Of a DNA stretch of 64,000 nt, positions 8,905 to 54,173 are shown in pieces; position 1 is the stretch's first letter; each line of letters starts with the position of its first letter. Position numbers and translations under genes: made by a program. Origin of the DNA: Patescibacteria group bacterium. GTDB lineage: Bacteria; Patescibacteriota; Minisyncoccia; UBA6257; JAAZHW01. The notes under the pieces are model-generated. The model made no database searches. It saw only the letters and a program-made list of their open reading frames with translations, and had not been told where the DNA came from. Where the stretch lies: contig JAOAGL010000001.1 of the NCBI GenBank assembly GCA_026415775.1, positions 6,282 through 70,281 on the forward strand, read 5' to 3'.

Positions 8905-10564
8905 AAAATTGTTTAGTTAGATTATTAAGACCAAAACCAAAACCTTTTTTGGGGGCATATAAAATTTCTTTTGGCAATAACCATTCAAATGCTTCTCTTA
9001 ATATTAGTTTATTATAAATTTTTCCGTATTTCCTTCTAATTTTTTTATGAGGATCTATTTTAAAAGCCATTTCTATAACTCTATAATCTAGAAATGGAGA
9101 TCGAGTTTCAATTCCAAACATCATAGCGGGCAAATCTCCTATAATAGTAATAGAATGACTATTTTCAGTAATTAATGCTAACCAATGGGATATATCTATA
9201 TAATTGTTTGTTTCCACTTTATTGGCCCAGTAATCTATCAATTCATTAAAATTATAATCATATTCAAATTTTTTTCTTGATTCTTCTAAATATAAAAAAC
9301 CTTTGCGTTTTTTATTTTCTATTTGAGCCAATTTAAATAAAATTTTTAGTTGTTTGTTAAAAAAGGAGATTTTTTCTAAAACTTTCAAAATCTTTTTAGG
9401 AAAAATCTCTATCATTTTTACAAAATCTGAAAAAATAAGTTGTTTATATGCATTATCATATCCATAAAAAATTTCATCAGCCCCATTGCCTGTCATTACC
9501 ACTTTAATATCATTTTTTTTAATATCACTAAAAAGTTTTGCTGCATGAACCAACGGAAATAGCTTAATGTTTTCACCATAAATTTCGGTCATTTTGTTAT
9601 AAAATTTTCTTTCTATTTCTTCTTCATAATAACAAATATGTAAAGGGATCTTAAATAAATTAGCTACCTTTTTTGCACGATTCAATTCTTCTGCATCTGC
9701 CATTAAACTAAACGCAGAGGGTTTCAAGCCGTGTTTGCACATTAATCCCGCAACAATAGAACTATCCACACCTCCGCTTAACAAAACAGCAACATCAACA
9801 TCTGCCCTTTCCCTTATTCTAACAGCATCATCAATAACTGCACACAAATCTTCTTTAGTAATCTTAGGATCATAATAAAAAGAAGGCGACCAATAGCACC
9901 ATTTTTTTATAATCTTTTTATTTTTTACTATGATTGCATGGGCGGGTTCTAATCTTTTTATTTCTTTATATTTTGTAAAAGGTTCGGGGATGTGTAAAAA
10001 ATTTCTTAGATGACTGTACGCTATACCTATTTTATCTTCCTCTGAAGAAAATATACCTATACTAAACAACGCACCCAATTCTGAAGCGAAATAAAAGCCG
10101 GATGAATTTTCACTAAAAATAAACGGTTTCTCTCCTATCCTATCACGAGCACAAAATAATATTTTTTCTTTCTTATCATATATAGCAAACGCGAATGCTC
10201 CATTTAATTTTTCTAAACATTTTTCTTTATAAAATATATAAGAAATTAGGAGTACTTCTGTATCACTATTTGTTTTGAAAGAATAATGAAATTTATTTTT
10301 GATTTCATTTTTTAACTCAAGATAATTATATATTTCCCCATTAAAAACAATGGCGTATCTGCCACATTGGGAAATAAATGGTTGATTAGCGTTAGCGCTT
10401 AAATCAATGATTGCCAAACGATTATGCCCTAATGTGATATCATCAATAGTTATTTTAGAAATATTATCAGAACCACGATGAATCTGTTTTTCAAGAATTT
10501 TCTCTACATACCTCTCTTGTAATTTGATTGGATTTGTTGACCAAACACCTGCTATTCCGCACAT
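8876..10564 (-). CDS. asnB: Asparagine synthase (glutamine-hydrolysing) / AsnB-family amidotransferase
   Basis: 562 aa. N-terminal nucleophile MCGIAG, and the PP-loop VAVLLSGGVDSS. Sits within the glycan gene cluster. Confidence 0.8.
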   Translation of the reverse strand: MCGIAGVWSTNPIKLQERYVEKILEKQIHRGSDNISKITIDDITLGHNRLAIIDLSANANQPFISQCGRYAIVFNGEIYNYLELKNEIKNKFHYSFKTNSDTEVLLISYIFYKEKCLEKLNGAFAFAIYDKKEKILFCARDRIGEKPFIFSENSSGFYFASELGALFSIGIFSSEEDKIGIAYSHLRNFLHIPEPFTKYKEIKRLEPAHAIIVKNKKIIKKWCYWSPSFYYDPKITKEDLCAVIDDAVRIRERADVDVAVLLSGGVDSSIVAGLMCKHGLKPSAFSLMADAEELNRAKKVANLFKIPLHICYYEEEIERKFYNKMTEIYGENIKLFPLVHAAKLFSDIKKNDIKVVMTGNGADEIFYGYDNAYKQLIFSDFVKMIEIFPKKILKVLEKISFFNKQLKILFKLAQIENKKRKGFLYLEESRKKFEYDYNFNELIDYWANKVETNNYIDISHWLALITENSHSITIIGDLPAMMFGIETRSPFLDYRVIEMAFKIDPHKKIRRKYGKIYNKLILREAFEWLLPKEILYAPKKGFGFGLNNLTKQFFDFYHDSSV

Positions 10565-31219: not shown

Positions 31220-32701
31220 TTATTGGAAAATTAATTGATCTCCAACAATAATTTCCACATCGCTATCAATTAAAATACCACATTCTTTCCCTTCTAAAAC
31301 TTCTTTAACATCTAATTTATTGCATTGAACATTTAAAATTTTTCCGCGGCCAATAATTTCTTCTCCTCGCTGAATTTTCACCTGCGCACCCTTTACAATT
31401 CTTCCTTCAATAACCTTACCGCCAACAACCTGCTCGGTTCGTTTTTTACTGAAACAAGCTAGAATTTCCAATTTTCCCTTTATTGGCGGCTCTTGCGGTT
31501 TAAACATTGCTTCAATTTCTTCTTTCAAAAACTTCTCCATTTCATAAATCACATCAAAAAGATAAACACGCAGATTTTTAGCTTGAATAATTGTTTGTAA
31601 ATCTTTCGGTATTTTTACTCGAAATCCCAAAATAATTGCCGGCGCCGTTTCGGCCAATGAAACATCAGAAACAAAAATATCACCAATTGATTCGCTAATA
31701 ATTTTCAAACTTGTATTTTCTGGCAAAGTGAGATTATTCAAAATGTTTTTCATCGCCTCAAGCGAACCAACAACATCAGCTTTTAAAATAATATTTAAAA
31801 CATTTTCACTGGCATCCAATTTTTGAATTTCAACTCTTTTATTCTCGCGCATTTTTTTCAATTCTTCCTCGCTTTTCTCGCCAACAAAAAACTCCTCACC
31901 AACCTGCGGCATATCTTTAAAACCAATAATTAACACTGGTTTTGAAGGACCAGCTTCTTTAATTTGTTTGCCGTTGCAATCTTCCATTAAACGCACTTTG
32001 CCAAGAACTGTTTCTGTATAAATAGAATCACCTACTTTCAAAACGCCGTTTTTTATTAAAACCGAAGCAATAATACCCCGTTTATTATCAAATTTCGTTT
32101 CCAAAATAACTCCACTGGCAGGAATATTTAATTCTGCTTTCAAATCCTCCATATCTGCCACCAATAAAATTAGCTCAAGCAATTCATTGATATTGGTACC
32201 GTTTTTCGCCGAAATATTAACAATTGGCACATTGCCTCCCCAACCCTCAACAAAAACTCCTAATTCTGCTAATTGGGTTTTAACTTTGTCGGGATTGGCT
32301 TCGGCTCTATCAATTTTATTCAAAGCCACAATAAAAGGAATTTTTGCTTGCTGGATATGGTTTAAAGCTTCAATTGTCTGCGGTTTTACTCCTTCATCAG
32401 CCGCAATAATTAAAATAGCAATATCACAAACTTGCGCCCCGCGCGCTCGAATAGCCGAAAACGCTTCATGACCAGGCGTATCAATAAAAGTAATTTGTCG
32501 ATTATTGTATTCGGGGTTATCGCTTTTAACAATAATATCATAAGCGCCAATATGCTGAGTGATGCCACCTGCTTCTTTGGCAGTAATATTAGTTTTGCGA
32601 ATAGTATCTAAAAGAGTTGTTTTTCCATGGTCAATATGACCCATCACTACTACAATGGGCGGTCGTTTAACCATATTCACTTGATTTGTTTTCTCAGCCA
32701 T
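31220..32701 (-). CDS. infB: Translation initiation factor IF-2 (short form)
   Basis: 493 aa. G-domain RPPIVVVMGHIDHGKTTLLD, DTPGHEAF, NKID. Lacks the long N-terminal domain. Confidence 0.85.
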   Translation of the reverse strand: MAEKTNQVNMVKRPPIVVVMGHIDHGKTTLLDTIRKTNITAKEAGGITQHIGAYDIIVKSDNPEYNNRQITFIDTPGHEAFSAIRARGAQVCDIAILIIAADEGVKPQTIEALNHIQQAKIPFIVALNKIDRAEANPDKVKTQLAELGVFVEGWGGNVPIVNISAKNGTNINELLELILLVADMEDLKAELNIPASGVILETKFDNKRGIIASVLIKNGVLKVGDSIYTETVLGKVRLMEDCNGKQIKEAGPSKPVLIIGFKDMPQVGEEFFVGEKSEEELKKMRENKRVEIQKLDASENVLNIILKADVVGSLEAMKNILNNLTLPENTSLKIISESIGDIFVSDVSLAETAPAIILGFRVKIPKDLQTIIQAKNLRVYLFDVIYEMEKFLKEEIEAMFKPQEPPIKGKLEILACFSKKRTEQVVGGKVIEGRIVKGAQVKIQRGEEIIGRGKILNVQCNKLDVKEVLEGKECGILIDSDVEIIVGDQLIFQ

Positions 32702-32781
32702 AAAATTTTTCTTAAAGTGTTTTTATCTTATCACAAAATTTCTTTTTCGTCTACTATTTATTTTTAATTTCAAAAAACAAA

Positions 32782-32806
32782 AAAGGGGTTCATTTTTGAA
32801 CCCCTT
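32782..32806. terminator. Bidirectional rho-independent terminator
   Basis: AGGGGTTCA-TTTT-TGAACCCCT hairpin flanked by A-run and T-run. Confidence 0.8.
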
Positions 32807-32816
32807 ATAAAAATTT

Positions 32817-33221
32817 TTAACGCCTTTCCACCCAAAACCTTCCACCATCCTCGCGGATGATGAAGGTGTAAGAATACGAATAATAGTTCGATCTTGCCCA
32901 CACCTTATCGGCGTAGGCGAAACCCCTTCTATCAACAATCTGCAGGGAAACTTCCTCCCCATAAAGGGAGGTGTTCCACAGACGAGCTAACCACTTCCCA
33001 TAGGGAGCCGCCACCCCCCTCTCCACCCCATCTATTAAAATATAAAAATAATAGGGGGTGGTGTTAAGAACAGTAACCCTTGTAGTATTAATAGGAAGAT
33101 TAGTGTCAACTGCAACAGTCAAACCGAGGGGAGTGCAGCTAGACAACAAAAGCAGAGTAAGCAACAACAGCACCAGCGAAAGAAAAATTTCTTTTGTTTG
33201 CTTCTTAATTAAATTCTTCAT
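32817..33221 (-). CDS. Predicted lipoprotein, hypothetical (GC-rich gene)
   Basis: 134 aa. Signal peptide with lipobox LLSSC. Arg/Tyr-rich body. Local GC is clearly above the window background. Confidence 0.5.
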   Translation of the reverse strand: MKNLIKKQTKEIFLSLVLLLLTLLLLSSCTPLGLTVAVDTNLPINTTRVTVLNTTPYYFYILIDGVERGVAAPYGKWLARLWNTSLYGEEVSLQIVDRRGFAYADKVWARSNYYSYSYTFIIREDGGRFWVERR

Positions 33222-33246
33222 TTTTGCCTCCTTTTTATAATTTTTA

Positions 33247-33762
33247 TTATTTTAATATCTCCCCTTTCCAAAAGTGCCTCTGCCAACCATGGGTTGGCGG
33301 GACACTTATATCTAATTTTCTGGCTAGTGCTATGACTGCATGATCTAGTGACAGCAATTTAACTTTTTGCTCACCACCATTCTGAAGAGCAAGAGCCGTT
33401 GCAACAACTCTAATGTCTATTATTGATATATCCTTCAACCTCATCCTTTCAGCCTCCGCTATTAATCTGGGGACTATCCTTTTTCTATACGACCCGGCTA
33501 CTTTCCATTCGCCGGATCTAATTTTTTCCTCCACCTGTGGCCATCGCTTTAAGGATAATGCAATGGTTTTTTCCAGCTTCTTCACCCGTCCATTCTGCGG
33601 CTTAGTTCTAAGCCGCTTTAAAACATCAAGATCTGCTCGATATTTTAATTCCTCTACAACTGCTCGAGGAACAATGATTTGAACACCCTTCTCGCGCCCA
33701 AGTACCTCTACAAAACCATAACTTCGCAGTAAAATATTGCTATCTACCACAATCATTAGCAT
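33247..33762 (-). CDS. PIN-domain-like nuclease, hypothetical (GC-rich gene)
   Basis: 171 aa. N-terminal MIVVDSNILL (PIN Asp1), later acidic positions VVEELK, IDIRVV and SLDHAV. Confidence 0.45.
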   Translation of the reverse strand: MLMIVVDSNILLRSYGFVEVLGREKGVQIIVPRAVVEELKYRADLDVLKRLRTKPQNGRVKKLEKTIALSLKRWPQVEEKIRSGEWKVAGSYRKRIVPRLIAEAERMRLKDISIIDIRVVATALALQNGGEQKVKLLSLDHAVIALARKLDISVPPTHGWQRHFWKGEILK

Positions 33763-33838
33763 TTTTTACCTCCTTATTTTTATTTTTTAAAGAACTTTTT
33801 TCAAAACCGCCTAAATTATATACCTTTTTTATTTTTTG

Positions 33839-34549
33839 TCAAATATCAATTTTTTCTCCTATTTCTTTCAAAAACCGCTCCAAATCCTCAGGCAAATCAG
33901 CCTCTAATCGCAAAGTGGTGCCGTTTGGCGAAGGAAATTCCAATAAATACGCATGCAGAAACAGCCGAACCGCTATTTTTTCTTTCTTCCGACCATAAAT
34001 TTTATCACCTACAATAGGATGACCAATACTTGCTAAATGCACTCTAATTTGATGTGTACGGCCAGTTTTGGGGGAAACCCTCAAAAGCGTCAACTTTTCT
34101 TTTTGCCACTCAAAAACTTTAATCACTTCATACTCAGTAATCGCCTCTTTTAATTCTTTCATTTTTTGAGCAGCAGTTGAGCGTTTGATAGAGGAAGCAA
34201 TAATACCAATTGGCTTATCAATGACACCTTTTTTATTTTTTATCTCACCATAAACCAAAGCTAGATATCCTTTTTTTATTTTCCGCTCCTGAAAAAGTTT
34301 TTTAAAATAATCAAACGCTTTTTGATTTTTGGCAATTAATAAAAGACCAGAAGTTTCTTTGTCTAAACGATGAACAATGCCTGGTCGATTTTTATCTTCA
34401 CCAACGCCAACAATATAAGGATAGCGTTTAATTAGCCAATCCACCAAACTTTTTTCGCCATATTTTGTCGAATGAACCAGCACTCCTACTGGCTTATTAA
34501 TCACCACAAAATCTTCATTTTCAAAAACAATAGAAATTTCTAACATCAT
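33839..34549 (-). CDS. RluA-family pseudouridine synthase
   Basis: 236 aa. HRLDKETSGLLLIAKN catalytic motif. Confidence 0.85.
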   Translation of the reverse strand: MMLEISIVFENEDFVVINKPVGVLVHSTKYGEKSLVDWLIKRYPYIVGVGEDKNRPGIVHRLDKETSGLLLIAKNQKAFDYFKKLFQERKIKKGYLALVYGEIKNKKGVIDKPIGIIASSIKRSTAAQKMKELKEAITEYEVIKVFEWQKEKLTLLRVSPKTGRTHQIRVHLASIGHPIVGDKIYGRKKEKIAVRLFLHAYLLEFPSPNGTTLRLEADLPEDLERFLKEIGEKIDI

Positions 34550-52516: not shown

Positions 52517-53350
52517 TCAATTTTCCTCCCTAAAGTCCCGCAGGGACATGCCCCGCGGGTTTCTTTCTACATCATCCTCTGCGCGGAGAGGAAGCTTTTT
52601 TCCTCTCCTTTTTTCTACTTTTTTTTCTACATCGACCTTGACCTTCTTCTGCTCCCGGTCTGATGGTACTTCAACGGGAACGGGATCAGGAAGAAATGGC
52701 TGAGAGTGAGGGGAAGGCTGCTGGGGCTGTGGAGGGTTCATCCTCGGCCGAGGAGTACTCGACCGAAGAACATTCTCCAATCCCTTTTCCCACTGGGGAT
52801 TGGAGATGCGATCGGGCTCGAAAAGCTCGACCGCCACTTCTAGAAGTTCCTCCGTGACCTCGCCGCGGAGAAACTCCCGGAGTCCCTCCTTGTCCCGCAC
52901 AAAGTGCGGGACATCAATCGCTACCCGCTCCTTTTGCAGGAGCTGGTAACGAGCCCCCTGGCGGACTACTGCAAGGTAATCCGCCACTAGTTTTCGGCCA
53001 TGGAACCGCACCACGGTTCCATTCCGAAAAACTATGAGCCATTTCTCCAACTTTTGATTAAAGCGGGGAGTGACTCTTTTGCCTTCCCCTACCAGCACCA
53101 CCCAGCCACGAGGGCCAGGAACGGCCAGCGAGAGCTGAAACCAGTGAGGCTGCCCTAGTTGGGGCAGTATCACCCACGGTTTCACCTCCCCTGTGGAGAG
53201 GATTTCGCACGGGATTTTCACCCGTGCATCCTCACCAAGGTAGACGCCCTGCAGGGCGCCTCCCTTGATTCTCTGCCGAATTTCTCGGCAGAATTCCTGC
53301 CCGAGCCGCTCCCAGACGGCCCAACATCTTAAAAATTTTAAGCCTATCAT
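52517..53350 (-). CDS. Hypothetical protein, GC-rich (about 50% GC) gene, Pro/Arg-rich C-terminus
   Basis: 277 aa. Composition (R, G, P, V rich) and codon usage are unlike neighbouring genes. No recognised domain. Own terminator GCGGCTGCGTT-GTTCCAA-CGCAGCCGC at about 52470-52505. Confidence 0.5.
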   Translation of the reverse strand: MIGLKFLRCWAVWERLGQEFCREIRQRIKGGALQGVYLGEDARVKIPCEILSTGEVKPWVILPQLGQPHWFQLSLAVPGPRGWVVLVGEGKRVTPRFNQKLEKWLIVFRNGTVVRFHGRKLVADYLAVVRQGARYQLLQKERVAIDVPHFVRDKEGLREFLRGEVTEELLEVAVELFEPDRISNPQWEKGLENVLRSSTPRPRMNPPQPQQPSPHSQPFLPDPVPVEVPSDREQKKVKVDVEKKVEKRRGKKLPLRAEDDVERNPRGMSLRDFREEN

Positions 53351-53427
53351 TTTAAACCTCCTTTTAAATTTTCAAACAAGGTGTGGCCCGGGCCGACAGC
53401 CCTGACGGTTCACCTTGCGCTGATTTA

Positions 53428-53456
53428 AGAATATCATAAAAACTCAAAAAAGTCAA
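53428..53456 (-). promoter_or_regulatory. Sigma70-type promoter (TTGACT-N17-TGaTATTCT) for the 277-aa GC-rich gene
   Basis: Minus-strand reading ATATTGACTTTTTTGAGTTTTTATGATATTCT. Member of the repeated promoter module. Confidence 0.55.
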
Positions 53457-53476
53457 TATAAATAAAAAGGAGGGAC

Positions 53477-54091
53477 TTAGTCCCTCCAACGATCGGGTGA
53501 GGAGGATGTTAAATCCTCCTTCACCCACACTGAGTTCCTTTCCAGAATGGAAAGGAACTCTTCGTACGTCCGCGGTCTTTTCAAACCGCGGACGTAAACA
53601 ATCACCTCCCGCGGAGCGCGGGAGGGATTGTGGTCCCAGGAGGTTAAATACCTTAACCTCCCGGCACCATCTCTCTTGATGCCATTAATGGCATCAAGAG
53701 AGACCCCCAGCCTCTGGAGGACCTTCTCCAGGTCCTCCATAGACCGGAAGCACCACATTGCCCTAAAGGGCAACTGGTGCTCCCGGCAATATCGCCGGGG
53801 GAAATCTCTGTCTTCCTCCACAGGAGGAAGACAGAGGACTTTGTGTGGGGAAATCCGGTAAACTCTACCGGATTTCACCTTCCATAACCCTCCTCCGCGG
53901 GAGGAGGAAATAATCCTTCCTCCCGTACCCACTTCCAGGATCCACCCGGAAGTGGGGTCCTGGGGATCCGGGACCAGAATCATTCTGGCTCCAGAATCCC
54001 CCTTCCGAATTACTTGCGGCCCAGCCGCAAGCAATTCGGAGGAAACCAGAATTTCAAAAAAATTTGCCATTTTTTCCTCCTTTTCCCCCAC
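53477..54091 (-). CDS. Hypothetical protein, GC-rich gene
   Basis: 204 aa, Arg/Gly/Ser-rich. Preceded by RBS AAGGAGGAAAAAATG and a structured GC-rich 5' leader. No recognised domain. Confidence 0.5.
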   Translation of the reverse strand: MGEKEEKMANFFEILVSSELLAAGPQVIRKGDSGARMILVPDPQDPTSGWILEVGTGGRIISSSRGGGLWKVKSGRVYRISPHKVLCLPPVEEDRDFPRRYCREHQLPFRAMWCFRSMEDLEKVLQRLGVSLDAINGIKRDGAGRLRYLTSWDHNPSRAPREVIVYVRGLKRPRTYEEFLSILERNSVWVKEDLTSSSPDRWRD

Positions 54092-54173
54092 CTGCCTTAC
54101 GGTCAGGTGCCCACCTTTTTCTAAACAAAAAAAGGTGGGGTTTTAAGGGTTATTTTTTTAAATGGCTACATAT

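Follow-up and report, generated by a model that had tools for sequence, protein, structure and literature searches.

The window analysed here is a 64-kb stretch from a 492 kb contig of a Patescibacteria MAG of ~33% GC, and its proteins carry the NCBI locus tags N2692_00220 onwards. We studied two ORFs on the minus strand that are separated by 25 nt and lie between rluA, an RluA-family pseudouridine synthase gene (33839-34549), on one side and infB (31220-32701) on the other. The span and the protein lengths given for the pair in an earlier note on this DNA (32817-33762; 171 and 134 aa) match ours exactly (33247-33762, 171 aa; 32817-33221, 134 aa). In the direction of transcription, the features of the locus are:

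33815-33842, minus strand: sigma-70 promoter, TTGACA-N16-TATAAT, matching the consensus at 12 of 12 positions; its -35 box overlaps the rluA stop codon
33769-33775, minus strand: ribosome-binding site AAGGAGG, read from the sequence, ending 6 nt before the PIN start codon
33247-33762, minus strand: gene for a PIN_4-class PIN-domain protein of 171 aa (NCBI MCX8015733.1, which starts at an ATG 6 nt downstream)
33227-33234, minus strand: ribosome-binding site of the lipoprotein gene, sequence AAAGGAGG, within the 25-nt intergenic gap
32817-33221, minus strand: gene for a small lipoprotein (134 aa) whose mature part, ~105 aa, is a possibly PEGA-like all-beta domain
33135-33146, minus strand: lipobox L26-S27-S28-C29, where the signal peptide (residues 1-28) ends; read from the translation
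32773-32806, minus strand: intrinsic terminator with a 10-bp stem (AAGGGGTTCA/TGAACCCCTT), a 4-nt loop and a T tract (hairpin 32806-32783)

The promoter is the sole perfect sigma-70 consensus in the 64 kb window, where 0.06 are expected by chance, and both of its hexamers are invariant across six lineages (alignment A4). The same alignment retains the GGAGG core of the PIN ribosome-binding site, and the ribosome-binding sites of both genes are of the AGGAGG type. The terminator is located downstream of the lipoprotein gene, and five lineages have a hairpin at this position whose stem sequences differ yet still pair (alignment A5), a pattern which reads as preservation of the terminator through compensatory changes. 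No terminator was predicted in the 25-nt gap between the PIN and lipoprotein genes, and none was found between rluA and the PIN gene. The earlier description of the pair as bounded by strong terminators is therefore right for its 3' side, where one strong terminator follows the lipoprotein gene, and wrong for its upstream edge, which is a promoter. The two genes appear to form a self-contained bicistronic unit with a predicted transcript of ~1.03 kb; the shared promoter and terminator support the proposal that they belong to one transcription unit and are probably co-transcribed.

The base composition of the pair is atypical for the window. Positions 32817-33762 have a GC content of 0.423 compared to 0.329 for the whole window; a GC content of at least 0.423 was reached in 4.5% of 946-nt segments, all of them inside an island at 52-54.7 kb or a gene at 56-57.8 kb. 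Against the background of the 49 other genes in the window (GC: 0.321, sd 0.040; GC3: 0.251, sd 0.049), both the PIN gene (GC: 0.42, z = 2.5; GC3: 0.37, z = 2.3) and the lipoprotein gene (GC: 0.44, z = 3.0; GC3: 0.50, z = 5.0) are outliers, in agreement with the earlier recognition of a GC-rich patch. The lipoprotein had also been called rich in arginine and tyrosine, and it is (Arg: 7.5% vs 3.5% background; Tyr: 7.5% vs 3.9%).

To place the 171-aa protein we combined a profile search with structure modelling. The sequence matches PF13638 (PIN_4) with 36.2 bits, above the cut-off of 21.9, over profile positions 1-127 of 132, and an AlphaFold2 model (pLDDT 88, pTM 0.85) predicts a three-layer alpha/beta/alpha PIN fold. 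Residues D7, E37/E38, D116 and D140 do not vary among 7 homologues, nor does a C-terminal tail with the sequence VPPxHGWxxHFWKxE. The protein is a cytoplasmic PIN_4-class domain with a fold nearest to those of SMG6 and Nob1 and with four catalytic acidic residues, and we infer that it acts as a Mg2+/Mn2+-dependent endoribonuclease on single-stranded cellular RNA, in processing or decay. The earlier assignment as a PIN nuclease agrees with the profile match, the predicted fold and the acidic residues. PF13638 sits in the VapC-like supergroup and includes the eukaryotic proteins SMG5/6 and Swt1 as well as bacterial members that are PhoH2 fusions or, in some cases, toxin-antitoxin toxins (PMC5499597).

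The PIN protein shares with SMG6/EST1A and the PIN_4.COG1875 group (PF13638) the same four-acidic site (D, E, D, D) and a helical insertion between core strands. Unlike SMG6, it is a stand-alone bacterial protein of 171 aa, and their identity is only 15-19%; it also lacks a fused PhoH ATPase and partners in nonsense-mediated decay, and its conserved tail is unique to it. A JGI label names the protein Nob1, 'rRNA maturation endonuclease' (PIN_6, COG1439). Membership of that family finds no support, as there was no PIN_6 Pfam match and no zinc ribbon, cysteine being absent from the protein altogether. Searches of NCBIfam, PADLOC and PHROGs returned no match for the PIN protein or the lipoprotein, the PDB yielded no sequence matches beyond marginal ones (MJ1533 PIN domain, E = 0.1-0.8), and we found no literature on the combination of PIN protein, lipoprotein and Patescibacteria.

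The N-terminus of the 134-aa protein consists of a lysine-rich n-region and a leucine-rich h-region followed by L-S-S-C29, and this signal peptide with its lipobox satisfies the pattern [LVI][ASTVI][GAS]C. Residues S28 and C29 are invariant among close relatives and C29 in 14 family members (alignment A6), which upholds the lipobox (LSSC, residues 26-29) proposed in the earlier note. The protein is probably exported and lipid-anchored on the outer face of the membrane. No family was found for it in Pfam (E <= 10) or NCBIfam, and a HMMER profile search of 1.84 billion representative proteins produced only 16 matches. Most of these are 115-184 aa long, with a signal peptide ending in Cys in 9 of the 9 sequences that were read. 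The family itself is made up of proteins of 115-146 aa, each with a signal peptide and the invariant Cys. At least 4 of the 16 are long multi-PEGA proteins that are matched repeatedly around the motif TTRVTVLNTTPYYFYILIDGVERGVAAPYGK, with profile scores that are sums of many stretches of 6-12 bits each. The 355-aa repetitive protein P0022 has neither feature and looks spurious.

A comparison of the lipoprotein family with PEGA repeats by hhalign gave a probability of 42% (P = 2.6e-4) over 25 columns, and the structure model of the lipoprotein is beta-rich and poor (pLDDT 59). Its mature domain may be PEGA-like: the family profile matches multi-PEGA proteins over TTxVxVxNxTPxxxxIxxDGxxxGxxxP, a resemblance to PEGA (PF08308), and the all-beta prediction is shared with PEGA and with small transthyretin-like lipoproteins such as TssJ and IglE. 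In contrast to all of these, the C-terminal half of the protein, YYxYSYTFxIRExxGRLWVERR, is without a known counterpart. We conclude that the lipoprotein represents an unannotated small-lipoprotein family and that the PIN_4 class gains a new member in the PIN protein.

Homologues of the PIN protein are rare (8 clusters among 5.8 billion proteins, with one GTDB species representative), and 24 of the 25 related loci that could be read keep the order rluA-PIN-lipoprotein, with PIN identity as low as ~30%. In the main clade infB comes next, and the pair sits between rluA and infB in 19 loci. The order rluA-PIN-lipoprotein-infB-(Vut_1)-queA was found in L001, L004, L006 and L009, and every contig of sufficient length shares the order Rce1-like, rluA, PIN, lipoprotein, infB, (Vut_1), queA, PolX, NUDIX, RNase J; in L005 only rluA-PIN is visible, and the contig stops at the PIN gene. 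The neighbourhood of the operon is rich in RNA and translation genes. A GTDB match, L012, was discarded as spurious because it is a GntR regulator hit through the short pattern EKIRSGEW. As the housekeeping neighbours are 70-89% identical among relatives, these genomes are at family-level divergence, and PIN protein identity across them is 46-72%.

A metagenome scan with the lipoprotein profile added 21 loci, 15 of which contain rluA-PIN-lipoprotein-infB or as much of this order as the contig holds. The most divergent of the 15, L026 and L027, have a PIN identity of 30-34%, PIN_4 scores of 46 and 41 bits, and intact active-site acidic residues. In L028-L031 the pair again comes after rluA, with a lipoprotein of 34-35% identity and, upstream of it, a PIN-like ORF (~20% identity); the PIN_4 matches of these ORFs are sub-threshold, E37/E38 are lost, and D7 is also lost in L031. 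In L013, the only locus that lacks the PIN gene, the loss is clean and the lipoprotein gene now stands directly under the operon's promoter. The PIN protein can therefore be dispensed with, and the two genes need not occur together. From the gene order in these loci, the pair is evidently a clade-specific operon that has been inherited vertically in a Patescibacteria (Minisyncoccia-type) lineage.

Because the pairing outlasts the catalytic site in distant relatives, a functional link between the PIN protein and the lipoprotein may exist. One form of this idea is that the two proteins form a functionally coupled envelope module, serving cell-surface, pilus or host-contact biology, in which the nuclease fold is partly a scaffold. 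In support of such a module, the pairing persists to ~20% PIN and 34% lipoprotein identity despite the loss of E37/E38 (and of D7 in L031), the next gene in the distant loci is type IV pilin-like with an N_methyl motif, and the PIN protein ends in an invariant tail of aromatic and basic residues that might bind a partner or the membrane. However, the predicted topology places the two proteins on opposite sides of the membrane, the lineage without a PIN protein retains the lipoprotein, and operon inheritance alone can explain the co-occurrence. On balance we regard a coupled envelope module as unlikely.

Vertical inheritance of the operon also bears on the proposal in the earlier note that the pair was acquired from a high-GC source similar to that of the 52.5-54.1 kb island. 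Part of the resemblance to the island stands, as the amino-acid bias of both proteins correlates with that of the island (PIN: r = 0.67-0.71; lipoprotein: r = 0.33-0.57). However, the shared bias is a generic GC signature (R, V, W, G up; N, K, I, F down), and the island is far more extreme (GC: 0.54-0.55; GC3: 0.59-0.60). Among the hallmarks of a genomic island, the pair has atypical composition; patchy presence, mobility genes at the borders and drift toward host composition were not observed.

We then compared GC3 across lineages. Both genes exceed their flanks in 11 of 11 lineages (mean: +0.114 for PIN, +0.153 for lipoprotein; minimum: +0.065), and the GC3 of each gene tracks the flank GC3 of its own genome (r = 0.70 for PIN, 0.42 for lipoprotein). 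At conserved residues the fraction of identical codons is 0.45 (PIN) and 0.43 (lipoprotein) vs 0.39 and 0.38 by chance, and since these fractions are close to chance expectation, synonymous sites are near saturation. The GC3 offset has been kept despite this near-saturation and is therefore maintained; a foreign signature would have ameliorated. Together with the synteny in 24 of 25 loci, an outcome which the earlier note had itself named as counting against acquisition, these data lead us to reject its proposal of uptake from a high-GC source. An older event, in which the clade ancestor acquired the pair from a GC-richer donor, possibly the source of the island, and amelioration is unfinished, would fit the compositional outlier status of both genes, the correlation of amino-acid bias with the island (r up to 0.71), the rarity of the family and the fact that the unit carries its own promoter and terminator. 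We consider it distinctly unlikely, as the pair is found at the same junction in all sampled lineages but one, to ~30% PIN identity, neutral amelioration should have erased a GC3 offset that instead follows own-genome GC3 in 11 of 11 lineages, the borders carry no mobility genes, searches for relatives in plasmids and phages found none, and the island is much GC-richer (0.55) and structurally different.

Genes for toxin-antitoxin and defence systems tend to be mobile and to occur patchily, and a VapBC pair has a small adjacent antitoxin gene that usually lies upstream, overlaps the toxin gene and encodes a DNA-binding protein. No antitoxin ORF of at least 20 aa was found in the 76-nt gap upstream of the PIN gene, which holds only the promoter and the ribosome-binding site. 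With no antitoxin ORF, no PF01850 match (E <= 10) and no PADLOC match (E <= 1), we rejected a type II VapBC system; unlike VapC toxins (PF01850), this PIN gene stays at one syntenic position, with a gene for an exported lipoprotein next downstream. The earlier note had found a PIN nuclease without an antitoxin unusual. The absence is real, down to ORFs of 20 aa upstream, and it is less surprising than claimed because the protein belongs to PIN_4 (SMG6/Nob1-like) rather than to VapC, sits at a fixed chromosomal locus and has no PADLOC, plasmid or phage relatives among those sought. A non-canonical toxin-antitoxin or defence module, in which a growth-arresting RNase toxin would be neutralised by its own C-terminal tail, by structured mRNA or by the partner gene, is very unlikely: although PIN_4 proteins of bacteria have been reported as toxin-antitoxin toxins or PhoH2 fusions (PMC5499597), and the PIN protein diverges faster than its neighbours (46-72% vs 71-89% identity), is lost in one lineage and has a degenerate active site in the most distant ones, there is no small cytoplasmic ORF upstream or downstream, the partner carries a signal peptide and lipobox and so is exported, PADLOC and the PF01850 VapC family give no match, and the pair is at a single fixed locus beside housekeeping genes in every lineage.

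The transcript of the vertically inherited operon is unusually structured. We calculated a folding energy of -306 kcal/mol for the operon RNA vs -259 +/- 6 for dinucleotide shuffles (z = -7.6), compared to z = -0.3 by dinucleotide shuffle for an infB control of equal length. With a null model of synonymous codon permutation, which keeps the protein and its codon usage, the genes in the window gave z = -6.3 (PIN) and -4.2 (lipoprotein), and z = -3.3 (PIN) and -3.9 (lipoprotein) when the permutation was restricted to 20-codon blocks. Among 53 genes in the window, only two island ORFs rank below the PIN gene in this respect, and the lipoprotein gene ranks fifth, just behind the gene at ~56.0-57.9 kb. 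Across lineages and controls, the folding z-scores were:

PIN gene, 14 lineages: z from -1.1 to -10.6, median -3.55
lipoprotein gene, 14 lineages: z from +0.1 to -8.7, median -3.45
rluA at the same loci (control), n = 13: z from -0.06 to -3.8, median -1.47
background genes of the window (control), n = 49: z from -5.25 to +1.9, median -0.58

Folding of the PIN and lipoprotein genes differs from the controls with Mann-Whitney p values of 0.002 to 1e-6, calculated over lineages that are not phylogenetically independent, and the signal is weak or absent in L004 (PIN, -1.1), L019 (lipoprotein, -0.7) and L025 (lipoprotein, +0.1). Folding is usually stronger for the sense than for the antisense strand. 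We do not attribute the folding z-scores to a GC3 artefact, as the two are uncorrelated among background genes (rho = -0.13, p = 0.37).

The structure of the operon mRNA is made up of ~25 short local hairpins. Its helices are well kept in close relatives (fraction paired: 0.83 to 0.62), and in the distant subclade they decay to about the control level (0.45-0.53 vs 0.38-0.46 for slid controls). A clade-wide conserved RNA structure was rejected (RNAalifold consensus: just -5.5 kcal/mol), as was an embedded non-coding RNA, for which no Rfam family was found at E <= 1 except terminator look-alikes. Nucleotide-level constraint on synonymous sites was likewise rejected, since codon identity at conserved residues is below that of the flanks and near chance. 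The operon also lacks the perfect-palindrome density of the island, as it contains only 2 hairpins with stems >= 8 bp, one of which is the terminator. Excess folding without conserved hairpins suggests that the GC excess results from selection for transcript structure. As the helices are not kept in the distant subclade, this reading rests on repeated z-scores and not on covariation.

We propose that the locus is a vertically inherited two-gene operon whose GC excess arose through selection for a stable, highly structured transcript, and we consider this explanation probable. The ~1.03 kb transcript would run from the consensus sigma-70 promoter to the single intrinsic terminator, with a strong ribosome-binding site ahead of each gene. 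The PIN protein would cut cellular RNA in the cytoplasm while the lipoprotein would sit on the cell surface, and the two may share nothing but the transcript. Part of the GC excess comes from amino acids (more R, V, W, T, Y and G; fewer K, N, I and F), and part from G/C-ending synonymous codons, placed so that they give local mRNA hairpins. Individual hairpins would turn over between lineages while the overall structure of the transcript stays, and we propose that G/C-ending codons persist because of selection for this overall structure or for stability. If true, the operon would be a clean natural example of synonymous-codon selection for transcript structure.

More doubtful is the specific idea that hairpin density itself is selected, for self-immunity or mRNA stability, and raises GC, possibly by one hairpin-favouring process that includes the island. 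In the case of self-immunity, folding into short helices would protect the transcript from its own product, a single-strand-specific PIN endonuclease; alternatively, extreme mRNA stability might serve an abundant surface lipoprotein. A single undescribed process or requirement that favours hairpins may act on selected transcripts of this lineage, with the island as an extreme case. E. coli lpp, the gene for the small Braun lipoprotein, has a strong promoter and an mRNA that is very stable and rich in hairpins, and it may serve as an analogy for transcript-structure selection on a lipoprotein operon. Unlike in lpp, to which there is no homology and which belongs to another type of envelope, the mRNA structure at our locus also spans an upstream PIN gene.

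Taken as a probable case of selection on transcript structure, the locus is an ordinary conserved operon with one odd property, a conserved GC3 excess that is coupled to excess mRNA structure. It follows that a locally GC-rich stretch of an AT-rich Patescibacteria genome does not have to be foreign DNA, as here it is a conserved, gene-specific equilibrium. The analysis also defines a clade-restricted operon of a probable PIN_4 RNase and an unannotated small-lipoprotein family, which offers experimenters two proteins to test in a group where few genes have been characterised. The points worth attention are the coupling of GC3 to mRNA structure and a far stranger hairpin array 20 kb away: the 52.5-54.1 kb island contains, at 53.4-54.1 kb, ~20 different perfect hairpins arranged head-to-tail through its ORFs.

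A hairpin array in the core of the GC-rich island (~52.5-54.1 kb) is far stranger than the GC-rich patch holding the PIN and lipoprotein genes. On both strands of window positions 53420-54130, we observed ~20 different perfect hairpins strung head-to-tail (perfect stems of 8-15 bp, loops of 3-8 nt; island GC 55%). The 53-54 kb bin holds 12 perfect hairpins, compared with 0-3 per kb across most of the window, and the bins on either side of it (52-53 and 54-55 kb) hold 4 per kb. The 711-nt core has a minimum free energy of -421.7 kcal/mol, with dinucleotide-shuffle z-scores of -24 for the minus strand and -17 for the plus strand, and searches of Rfam, Pfam, PHROGs and plasmid and viral sequences gave no match to it. 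The hairpin string traverses an open reading frame, which is listed here with the other two GC-elevated genes of this part of the window:

53477-54091, minus strand: island-core open reading frame, 204 aa
52517-53350, minus strand: second island open reading frame, 277 aa, GC 0.55, hypothetical protein N2692_00320
56024-57886, minus strand: third GC-elevated gene, GC 0.43, product of 620 aa

When mRNA folding was scored against synonymous-codon-permuted versions (median z of -0.58 for 49 window genes), the island-core frame gave a z of -12.9 and the second island frame a z of -7.5. The protein encoded by this second frame forms a singleton cluster. ARAGORN called a tRNA-Leu(caa) within the same frame (52879-52967), a call that had no support from the Rfam tRNA model and is probably a hairpin artefact. 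Excess mRNA structure was also found in the third gene (z of -5.25), whose secreted product is rich in Thr and Ala and carries a PG_binding_1 domain.

For the PIN-lipoprotein operon, the promoter (33815-33842) is the only exact match to TTGACA-N16-18-TATAAT in the 64 kb window, which hints that transcription of the operon is unusually strong. In one related lineage (L013, 3074-4402), the PIN gene is wholly absent, and the conserved promoter lies directly ahead of the lipoprotein gene, which it would then drive. The GC3 of this lipoprotein gene is 0.30 versus 0.22-0.23 in its flanks, a much smaller excess, and its mRNA structure is weak (z of -1.3). The alignment of the PIN gene is split in L018 (3385-3890), with query residues 2-40 matched separately from 43-170; the break points to a frameshift, a pseudogene or a misassembly of that contig.

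In the most divergent loci (L028-L031; for example, L031 1260-1946 and L029 1435-3606), infB does not come after the pair, and its place is taken by a gene for a large type IV pilin-like protein that has an N_methyl motif; in L031, an IS200-type Y1 transposase lies between rluA and the PIN-like gene. Aligning the terminator region of the operon across lineages (alignment A5) revealed additional sequence, inserted after the lipoprotein terminator and ahead of the infB promoter, in two lineages (L006, ~9020-9130; L009, ~1345-1420). With copies of the palindrome TGTTATGCTATAGCATAACA inside it in both, this insert looks like a small MITE.
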